A DNA stretch of 7,950 bases from a virus (lineage: Duplodnaviria; Heunggongvirae; Uroviricota; Caudoviricetes): the IMG/VR virus record IMGVR_UViG_2547132274_000015, positions 1 through 7,950 of that record; one strand, given 5' to 3'. Under the pieces are notes generated by a model. It saw nothing but the letters and a program-made list of their open reading frames with translations. It made no database searches and was not told the DNA's origin. Shown here one piece after another: positions 1 to 1,167 of the stretch. Both the position numbers and the translations under genes were made by a program. The stretch's first letter is position 1. Each line of letters opens with the position of its first letter.

Positions 1-1167
1 ATGATTGAAATTAACAGTTTATTATTAATAACATCCGTGATATTGATGTCGTTATTAGCTGTGGGGTTATTTGATAAAATTTCCCCAATAAATCTTGTTG
101 AGCACGGCAGGAATAATCAAATAGATGGAATGCGGGGGTTCTTAGCAATTTTCGTGCTTATTCATCACGCAGCAATTTGGAATGGATACTTGTCATCTGG
201 AGTATGGGAAGCACCTTCATCAAATCTGTTAGCAAATTTAGGCCAAGTTGGTGTGTCATTCTTTTTTATGATTACTGGTTATCTGTTCTTTTCAAAGATT
301 ATCTCTGGAGATCAGGACTGGACAAGGCTTTATGTATCAAGATTACTACGATTAACCCCAATGTTCATAGTTAGCCTATGTCTCATTTTTATCATTGTAG
401 GTTTTAAGTCTGGATGGAGAATGCAGGTATCCACAGAAGAGCTTTTTGTGTCAATAATGAAGTGGTTGCCATTCACTGCGCTAGGTATGCCGAACATTAA
501 TGACGTAAAAGATTCATTTACTATCAATGCCGCTGTAACATGGACACTTGTATATGAATGGTTCTTTTATTTTTCTCTTCCGGTAATTTCCGCGCTCATA
601 AAAAGAAAAGTCAGTATTTACATGGTTATGATTAGCGCAATATCGCTATTTGTTTTCATTTTATTTTTCAGTAAAATACACATAGTATCATTTCTTTTTG
701 GGCTCCTGGCATTTTTGCTAAATAAATCAAAGATAGTCAATGGAATTGCCAAAGCAAAAGTAACACCAATTATAATAACTGCGATAATGATTTTTGAAAT
801 GACGTATTTCAAAACAACTTACGCACCGCTACCACTGATTCTTTGTGGAATAACATTTATCATTATCGCATCAGGTTGTGATTTGTATGGAATATTAAGA
901 TTAAATATAACCAGAAAGCTAGGAGAAACTACCTACAGCGTTTACCTTCTGCATGGGATATTCCTTTATTGCCTAATGACGTGGATTATTCCTAATAATT
1001 ACACTGAAAATGCATTTATCATACTGGTAAGCACAACTGCATTTCTTATTACGTTCACATCATGCCTAACTTTTAAATTAATAGAGACGCCATTCATCAA
1101 ATTAACAAAACAAACCACAAGTTTAGTAAAAGAATTAATACCCACATTAACAAACAACAATCAATAA
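1..1167 (+). CDS. Acyltransferase-3 family integral membrane protein, probably an O-antigen O-acetyltransferase (Oac/OafA-like lysogenic-conversion protein). The N-terminus may lie at or upstream of the window edge.
   Basis: Uninterrupted 388-codon ORF. Residues ~36-57 (RNNQIDGMRGFLAIFVLIHHAA) fit the conserved N-terminal motif of the acyltransferase-3 family (R..x.DG.R..A...V...H). The whole protein is hydrophobic with many predicted TM segments and is rich in I/L/F. Sampled lines are about 25-30% GC, against roughly 50% for neighbouring genes. Position next to a P22-like tailspike matches where Sf6 oac and P22 gtr conversion genes sit. Confidence 0.75.
   Translation: MIEINSLLLITSVILMSLLAVGLFDKISPINLVEHGRNNQIDGMRGFLAIFVLIHHAAIWNGYLSSGVWEAPSSNLLANLGQVGVSFFFMITGYLFFSKIISGDQDWTRLYVSRLLRLTPMFIVSLCLIFIIVGFKSGWRMQVSTEELFVSIMKWLPFTALGMPNINDVKDSFTINAAVTWTLVYEWFFYFSLPVISALIKRKVSIYMVMISAISLFVFILFFSKIHIVSFLFGLLAFLLNKSKIVNGIAKAKVTPIIITAIMIFEMTYFKTTYAPLPLILCGITFIIIASGCDLYGILRLNITRKLGETTYSVYLLHGIFLYCLMTWIIPNNYTENAFIILVSTTAFLITFTSCLTFKLIETPFIKLTKQTTSLVKELIPTLTNNNQ

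Follow-up and report, generated by a model that had tools for sequence, protein, structure and literature searches.

The window, i.e., the whole stretch of 7,950 nucleotides of caudoviral DNA analysed here, begins with a gene on the plus strand, identified below as oacB, which is followed by a tailspike gene on the minus strand. As the sequence-only reading had described, the two genes are convergent; they meet tail-to-tail, with the stop codon of oacB at 1165–1167 (+) and that of the tailspike at 1221–1223 (−), and a spacer of 53 nt lies between them. The features are as follows:

1..1167, plus strand: oacB coding sequence, 388 codons plus TAA, from the open reading frame list, the PF01757 match and the DNA identity to orf16 of Sf101
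16..81, plus strand: TM0, an extra N-terminal transmembrane helix (residues 6–27) ahead of the 10-helix core, from hydropathy, AlphaFold2 (AF2) and the homologue alignment
109..168, plus strand: TMH1 motif R37-x4-D42-G43-x-R45-...-H55-H56, equal to the published DGxRGxLAxxVxxHH
340..351, plus strand: TMH3 RxxR motif, R114 and R117, invariant in the alignment and equal to the essential R116 and R119
1181..1212, no strand assigned: GC-rich hairpin in the 53-nt spacer, GCCGCCCTA / 14-nt loop / TAGGGCGGC, 9 bp, arms 1181–1189 and 1204–1212
1221..2933, minus strand: P22-type tailspike, 570 aa, matching Head_binding PF09008 with an E value of 2.2e-64

Identity of oacB and its P22-like surroundings

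The protein encoded at 1–1167 matches the profile PF01757 (Acyl_transf_3) with an E value of 3.6e-32 and 112.2 bits, against a curated cut-off of 31 bits, and the match covers residues 39–351 and profile positions 2–321 of 326; the profile check thus bears out the earlier proposal of an acyltransferase-3 (AT3) membrane protein. NCBIfam gave no match for OacB or the tailspike. At the DNA level, the 1220 nt spanning oacB match, at 99.8% identity, a gene of Shigella phage Sf101, orf16, annotated as "O-acyltransferase B", and the gene of the Escherichia coli G3/10 prophage is equally close (99.8%), this strain being the sole match to the oacB cassette among 5,426 complete E. coli genomes. The protein shares 386 of its 388 residues with both the Sf101 and the G3/10 records, the two differences being conservative substitutions, A338 and S374, where both records have threonine. 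This exact allele was found in no contig by exact-protein look-up, and a 42-mer specific to it was absent from the species-representative genomes scanned, in which a conserved oacB 47-mer matched only two IS-truncated islands of S. flexneri type. Jakhetia et al. isolated Sf101, a P22/Sf6-like podovirus, and cloned its oacB in 2014 (PMC4159516), and the product of that gene was shown by NMR to acetylate rhamnose III (RhaIII), so that the reading of the gene as an O-antigen serotype-conversion gene is upheld. The gene at 1–1167 is very probably an allele of oacB, by which P22-like prophages of the Sf101 type convert their lysogens; its product would be a stand-alone AT3 enzyme acetylating RhaIII at O3/O4. 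Nothing speaks against this identification. oacB is already known and experimentally characterized, and the window extends this knowledge by no more than a new allele in another prophage background.

The start of the gene is defined to within two codons. In the public records of Sf101 and E. coli G3/10, oacB starts 6 nt upstream of window position 1 and encodes a product of 390 aa (MH-MIEIN...). An in-frame TAG stands directly ahead of this upstream ATG, so the frame can hold at most 390 codons and the window is short by no more than two of them. The ATG at position 1 is the start used by the 388-aa database cluster P0001, which has 904 members; a weak AGAG lies 7 nt upstream of it.

Six genes follow oacB, and Pfam identifies five of them as P22-like, namely the tailspike, gp20, gp7, DUF2824/gp14 and an Arc/Mnt repressor. 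The tailspike (whose start annotated in the G3/10 record corresponds to window position 2933), Inj_translocase (gp20), P22_gp7, DUF2824 (gp14) and a gp16 homologue lie on the minus strand, and the small Mnt-like repressor of the Arc/Mnt type lies on the plus strand; the gp16 homologue, of 665 aa, has no Pfam match and is of the same size as in Sf6. Sf101, the G3/10 prophage and Sf6 all share the order gp14-gp7-gp20-gp16-mnt-tailspike with the conversion gene next in opposite orientation, and the position beside the tailspike is the slot held by oacB in the Lederbergvirus Sf101 and by oac in Sf6, which agrees with the P22-like setting, comparable to that of Sf6 oac, proposed from the sequence.

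The tailspike shares 87% identity with its Sf101 counterpart from end to end; in the receptor-binding part it also resembles gp13 of the Shigella siphophage Sf11 (PDB 9OCC), at 86% identity. It has been reported that the primary receptor of Sf11 is the O-antigen of serotype Y S. flexneri (PMC12724387), and Sf101 and Sf11 both infect serotype Y S. flexneri. The tailspike would recognise the same O-antigen backbone that OacB modifies. A relationship to the Sf6 endorhamnosidase was considered and rejected, because only the N-terminal head-binding domain is common to the two proteins (86% identity over 125 residues).

The spacer hairpin has a folding energy of −21.1 kcal/mol (z −4.9), and none of 200 shuffled sequences was as stable. 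It is a plausible candidate for a bidirectional terminator serving both genes, a role suggested by its structure and position. A simple terminator scan of the window missed it, the loop limit of the scan being 8 nt versus the 14 nt of the hairpin loop. Rfam found nothing in the window. The window itself begins at the oacB start, and a promoter scan of it gave no convincing oacB promoter; a consensus scan of the G3/10 region homologous to the oacB upstream region gave nothing convincing, its one weak match lying inside the coding sequence. oacB would be expressed from its own promoter, placed outside the window. With regard to the marks of a moron, a terminator-like hairpin and a deviant base composition are present, and the promoter scan of G3/10 contributes the one weak match only.

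Membrane topology and signature residues

The sequence-only reading pointed out a hydrophobic N-terminal extension of roughly 35 residues and offered two explanations for it, a start codon placed elsewhere or an extra transmembrane helix. The extension itself is real: when OacB is aligned with Sf6 Oac, the conserved motif starts at R37 in the former and at residue 3 in the latter, giving 34 extra residues, and residues 6–24 form a hydrophobic stretch with a Kyte–Doolittle peak mean of 2.47. The homologue alignment comprises 49 sequences of 72% to 32% identity from Enterobacteriaceae, Pseudomonas, Flavobacterium, Methyloversatilis and Verrucomicrobia. A hydrophobic stretch precedes the invariant Asp in all 49 (mean peak hydropathy 2.4), and the mean length before this residue is 40 residues; its position and character are conserved and its sequence is not. 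The segment before TM0 carries no positive charge in 47 of the 49, the mean number of Lys plus Arg being 0.06 before TM0 and 2.5 between TM0 and the Asp, and higher after the helix in every homologue. By the positive-inside rule, this distribution places the N-terminus in the periplasm, and an N-out topology of OacB is thus predicted. It agrees with the TmAT fold, in which the DxxR motif lies at the cytosolic end of TMH1 (PMC12423673).

AF2 run on the 49-member alignment gave a model with a pLDDT of 93.8 and a pTM of 0.92, in which a helix at residues 6–27 (block pLDDT 88–98) precedes ten core helices, among them a bent TMH9; OacB accordingly has the 10-helix transmembrane core fold shared with HGSNAT and GWT1. 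Meanwhile, Rajput and Verma had predicted in 2022 that OacB has 11 TM helices and a periplasmic N-terminus, with the extra helix as TM I, topology programs giving 11 TM helices in four of five cases and a periplasmic N-terminus in all five (PMC8952252). It is highly unlikely that the extension arose from a wrongly called start, or represents a signal peptide that is cleaved off, instead of a stable extra helix. Two ATGs 6 nt apart and internal ATGs at codons 16 and 44 could be taken to favour a wrong start, but a start at codon 44 would lose the invariant D42 and G43 together with the nearly invariant R37, and one at codon 16 would truncate a helix found in 49/49 homologues, down to 32% identity. 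A cleavable Sec signal peptide is rejected by the uncharged pre-helix segment, which is the opposite of a Sec signal, and both the confident AF2 model of TM0 and the published topology predictions argue against an artefact of either kind. What is left of the doubt about the true start is the two-codon ambiguity between the TAG-limited upstream ATG and position 1, and the extra helix was the correct one of the two explanations. The N-terminal extension is a genuine extra helix specific to the OacB subfamily, already described in 2022 as TM I.

The signature residues expected of the family are in place. The TmAT motif set comprises DxxR and a His in TMH1, FxxxxG in TMH2, RxxR in TMH3, a Gly in TMH6 and a Tyr in TMH9 (PMC12423673), and the corresponding residues of the window protein are D42/R45, H56, F88...G93, R114/R117, G234 and Y312/Y315, all of which except G93 are invariant in the 49 homologues; in the TMH1 motif, D42, G43, R45, G46 and H56 are invariant in 49/49. 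It has been reported that mutagenesis of OacB identified R47, H58, W71, F98, R116, R119 and S146 as essential, with R47A and H58A abolishing function (PMC8952252), and all seven are kept in the window as R45, H56, W69, F96, R114, R117 and S144. When the 49-member alignment was used for a sequence-profile search of the PDB, no solved structure of an AT3 protein came up, and the mechanism is therefore modelled on the homologous HGSNAT and OafB. By this analogy, OacB would be a stand-alone acyltransferase of the inner membrane that has the AT3/TmAT fold and comprises 11 helices, the N-out TM0 and a 10-helix core. Acetyl-CoA would bind at the cytoplasmic face, at D42-x-x-R45 of TMH1 and R114-x-x-R117 of TMH3; the acetyl group would then cross through a membrane pore and be transferred on the periplasmic side, where H56 is probably the catalytic residue. 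In the repeat of the S. flexneri-type O-antigen it would be accepted by rhamnose III, at O3 or O4, part of the repeats being acetylated, and this acetylation would create group O-factor 9 and alter the receptor of O-antigen-specific tailspike phages.

Several known systems share parts of this architecture. The closest is OacB of Sf101 and of S. flexneri 2a strain 301 (SF0315), which has the same essential residues, the convergent tailspike, the terminator hairpin and the predicted 11-TM topology. OacC, from S. flexneri serotype 6, has 72% identity and shares the N-terminal helix and 3/4-O-acetylation of RhaIII, but its carrier is an SfII-like long-tailed prophage and not a P22-like one (PMC4206707). 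Oac of Sf6 is likewise an AT3 protein in the same genomic slot convergent with the tailspike, with the same serotype-conversion logic, but it is only 23% identical to OacB, has 333 aa, lacks the extra N-terminal helix and acetylates O2 of rhamnose I. The Salmonella OafA and OafB proteins are AT3-SGNH fusions with the same AT3 domain and the same TMH1 Arg/His and TMH3 RxxR motifs; in these enzymes a periplasmic SGNH domain completes the transfer to the sugar, whereas OacB has no SGNH domain. Human HGSNAT and fungal GWT1, TmAT proteins with solved structures, are 10–14% identical to OacB and differ in their acceptors and accessory domains. The gtrABC genes of P22 are also an O-antigen-modifying conversion cassette of a P22-like prophage and alter the phage's own primary receptor, but they do so by glucosylation through a three-protein, bactoprenol-linked pathway, compared with acetylation by a single enzyme in the case of OacB.

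Base composition and mobility of the cassette

The GC content of oacB is 33.8%, compared with 48.5% for the rest of the window, and no 1167-nt window across 1221–7950 falls below 41.5%. The contrast proposed from the sequence therefore holds, but the figure of 25–30% GC given for sampled lines of the gene was too low: taken in 60-nt lines, the gene varies between 25 and 43% (mean 33.9%), and only 6 of the 19 lines are at or below 30%. Of the neighbouring genes that had been put near 50%, the ejection genes are indeed at 50.4–51.7% (49.6–51.7% with the head genes included), while the exact value for the tailspike is 43.8%; mnt has 42.2%. The GC3 of oacB, 0.32, is the lowest in the window.

Part of this deficit follows from the protein itself, as OacB is rich in Ile, Leu, Phe, Lys and Asn. 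When the OacB amino acids were recoded with the codon usage of the neighbour genes, the expected GC content was 39.3% (sd 0.9) versus the observed 33.9% (z = −6.2), which means that about two-thirds of the deficit stem from amino-acid composition and about one-third from synonymous codon choice. Only the synonymous-site third points to foreign origin. Horizontal acquisition, which had been read from the low GC content as such, is thus supported at the codon level, while most of the GC deficit reflects the composition of a membrane protein. There is a small chance that the low GC content reflects hydrophobic membrane-protein composition alone and is silent on horizontal acquisition, for even with the neighbours' codons a GC content of just 39.3% would be reached against 48.5% elsewhere in the window. 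This is opposed by the further 5.4 points by which the observed value lies under the recoded one, by the GC3 value, and by the distribution of oacB, which is found in three unrelated chromosomal contexts and in only one of the 5,426 complete E. coli genomes. The codon-level deficit and the presence in three different chromosomal contexts together mark oacB as a compositionally foreign cassette.

These contexts can be compared directly. Taken as a whole, the window shares 97.2% identity with the prophage of E. coli G3/10. That prophage occupies the lambda attB core, between ybhB and oacB, and oacB is its terminal gene. Sf101 integrates at sbcB (PMC4159516) and carries int upstream of oacB. The backbone of the window prophage differs from that of Sf101 in the ejection genes, and the related G3/10 prophage sits at lambda attB and not at sbcB; the window region 3320–6254, which takes in the gp16 homologue and distal gp20, has no DNA match to Sf101. 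Homology between Sf101 and G3/10 starts about 210 nt upstream of oacB and spans oacB, the tailspike and mnt, and the ejection genes differ. In S. flexneri, chromosomal oacB islands have retained oacB together with an integrase gene and the final ~640 nt of this tailspike gene, which an IS truncates, and this combination supports the published idea that the islands are decayed Sf101-like prophages. In addition, a metagenomic viral contig encodes an OacB homologue (50% identity) whose gene, too, converges with that of a phage tail protein. The oacB–tailspike pair moves as a unit, between prophages that differ in backbone and integration site, one of which resides in a commensal E. coli with a flexneri-type O-antigen cluster: G3/10 carries a cluster of the O13/O129/O135 family, and the O13/O129/O135 O-antigens are related to those of S. 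flexneri, according to papers citing Perepelov et al. 2010.

Acetylation of the O-antigen and its meaning for phage and host

It has been reported, from 1H NMR and TOCSY, that OacB of Sf101 places O-acetyl groups on O3 of RhaIII in about one-quarter of the repeats and on O4 in about one-fifth (PMC4159516), and OacC and OacB are functionally interchangeable (PMC4206707). Acetylation of RhaIII at O3/O4 by the window allele is supported by its closeness to the Sf101 allele, from which it differs at two residues, and may be expected of it on that basis. An acceptor other than RhaIII, such as O6 of GlcNAc, another surface polysaccharide or peptidoglycan, is extremely improbable. AT3 enzymes do use many acceptors, and the abstract of PMC8952252 credits OacB also with 6-O-acetylation of GlcNAc; however, the NMR data on the cloned allele two residues apart identify RhaIII O3/O4, 6-O-acetylation of GlcNAc has been assigned to oacD (PMC8973906), and RhaIII specificity is kept even in the 72%-identical OacC (PMC4206707). 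It is also very unlikely, if slightly less so, that oacB is an intact but silent or useless hitch-hiking remnant, either in a host lacking the RhaIII acceptor or inactivated by the two substitutions. The allele with A338 and S374 is absent from the collections searched, and in E. coli G3/10, which harbours the closest prophage, rfbG and wzy are annotated as frameshifted, so the acceptor polymer may not be made there. Against a remnant stand the complete frame, in which none of the seven essential residues and none of the invariant family positions is lost, the location of positions 338 and 374 in variable columns of the alignment of 49 homologues, and the linked tailspike of the flexneri-O-antigen type. 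An active OacB directed at RhaIII is therefore the preferred reading.

The sequence-only reading also held that such a modification blocks adsorption by phages with the same receptor specificity. This is borne out for a heterologous phage: absence or deletion of oacB makes serotype 2a sensitive to Sf6, as PMC8973906 cites from Teh et al. 2020, and a 2024 review classes oacB of Sf101 as a receptor-inactivation superinfection-exclusion gene. The experimental scope of this evidence, as cited there, is Sf6 and not the carrier phage. Sf101 plates equally well on serotypes 1a and Y, and the Sf101 paper counts serotype 1a among those with oacB-mediated acetylation (PMC4159516); these two observations together suggest that self-exclusion by OacB may be weak or absent. 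Exclusion by OacB of its own carrier phage is putative.

The conservation of TM0 can be noted here once more in its breadth, as its position and hydrophobicity, and not its sequence, are kept from enterobacteria to Pseudomonas, Flavobacterium and Verrucomicrobia. A speculative suggestion, which we consider rather unlikely, is that TM0 may be a functional adaptor of the stand-alone AT3 subfamily, more than a passive topology element, e.g., by replacing the missing periplasmic SGNH partner in placing the O-antigen acceptor, or by docking to the Wzy/Wzz/WaaL machinery. Separately, and with the same reserve, the presence of the cassette in E. coli whose O-antigens are of the O13/O129/O135 type, a marketed probiotic strain among them, could make it a driver of serotype conversion and of the exchange of phage resistance between commensal E. 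coli and Shigella.

The oacB–tailspike pair as a mobile unit is a modestly useful point. O-acetylation of RhaIII defines group O-factor 9 of S. flexneri and is thus relevant to serotyping and to O-antigen vaccines, and it changes susceptibility to O-antigen-specific phages, which makes it relevant to phage therapy.

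OacB in the literature and in host genomes

OacB is the O-antigen O-acetyltransferase encoded next to the tailspike gene. Rajput and Verma (PMC8952252) stated that OacC and OacB are 97% identical, whereas both the database OacC and the original OacC paper give 72%; the abstract of PMC8952252 also credits OacB with GlcNAc 6-O-acetylation, which other papers assign to OacD.

The closest relative, a prophage of E. coli G3/10, is located at the lambda attB core GCTTTTTTATACTAA adjoining ybhB (L002, the G3/10 prophage region, 6540-6554), with oacB as the terminal gene. A short pseudogene is annotated upstream:

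L002 6763-6846: short annotated pseudogene of E. coli G3/10, C-terminal end ...DKRREMMQWWADWLDEKVE*

It ends 149 nt before oacB and may be the C-terminal remnant of an integrase, and the homology between the Shigella phage Sf101 and G3/10 begins inside it. The strain G3/10 is included in the probiotic Symbioflor 2, for which a review gives the serotypes as 'O35,129, O169, rough'. The O-antigen cluster of G3/10 between galF and gnd (L005, the record of that region, 931-9760) is of the S. flexneri-type O13/O129/O135 family; its annotation marks rfbG, wzy, and a gtrA-like gene as frameshifted, and the cluster carries an IS5 insertion.

oacB is also present in chromosomal islands of S. flexneri:

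L008 2483-6789: chromosomal oacB island of S. flexneri; similar islands in the S. flexneri loci L007, L009, L016, and L017

In these islands, an integrase gene is followed by oacB, the 3' part of a tailspike gene (about 640 nt of the Sf101-type gene), and then an IS transposase with rve domains; the islands are fossils of the oacB-tailspike cassette seen in the window.

Ejection module and mnt-like gene

Two features are found upstream of the tailspike gene:

3405-5402, minus strand: gp16-position ejection protein of 665 aa
3022-3315, plus strand: small Arc/Mnt-type ribbon-helix-helix repressor gene (Pfam Arc, E 3e-14; Repressor_Mnt, E 3e-14)

The ejection protein has no match among Pfam and NCBIfam profiles; its length equals that of gp13 of phage Sf6, while Sf101 carries a 911-aa 'transglycosylase' at the gp16 position. 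At the DNA level, Sf101 has no match to positions 3320-6254 of the window, so the ejection module contains a mosaic boundary. The mnt-like gene is flanked by the gene for the gp16 homologue and the tailspike gene, and neither an arc nor an ant partner is present within the window; mnt thus seems to be all that is left of the immI region. In Sf101, the mnt counterpart is recorded as a 'putative chromosome segregation ATPase', apparently in error.

Tailspike start and receptor-binding part

For the tailspike, the start and the receptor-binding part are considered:

2934-2981, minus strand: 16-codon upstream extension in the mechanical ORF list (ATG at 2981, giving 586 aa)
1221-2579, minus strand: receptor-binding part, residues 120-569

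In the G3/10 and Sf101 records, the tailspike starts with MSDITAN..., corresponding to position 2933 and a protein of 570 aa. In the linker that follows its head-binding domain, the Sf101 tailspike (8224-9963 of its record, L001) repeats the 10 residues LQEELFAIKN perfectly in tandem, whereas the window tailspike, compared over 1224-2933, has no such duplication.

No Pfam domain is found in residues 120-569. PDB 9OCC, the entry for gp13 of the Shigella siphophage Sf11, is modelled at residues 4-59 only; therefore, the receptor-binding domain of the window tailspike and Sf11 gp13 is without an experimental structure. The window tailspike is podovirus-type, and its receptor-binding part is 86% identical to Sf11 gp13; one receptor-binding domain is thus common to P22-like phages, which are temperate, and to a siphophage, which is lytic.
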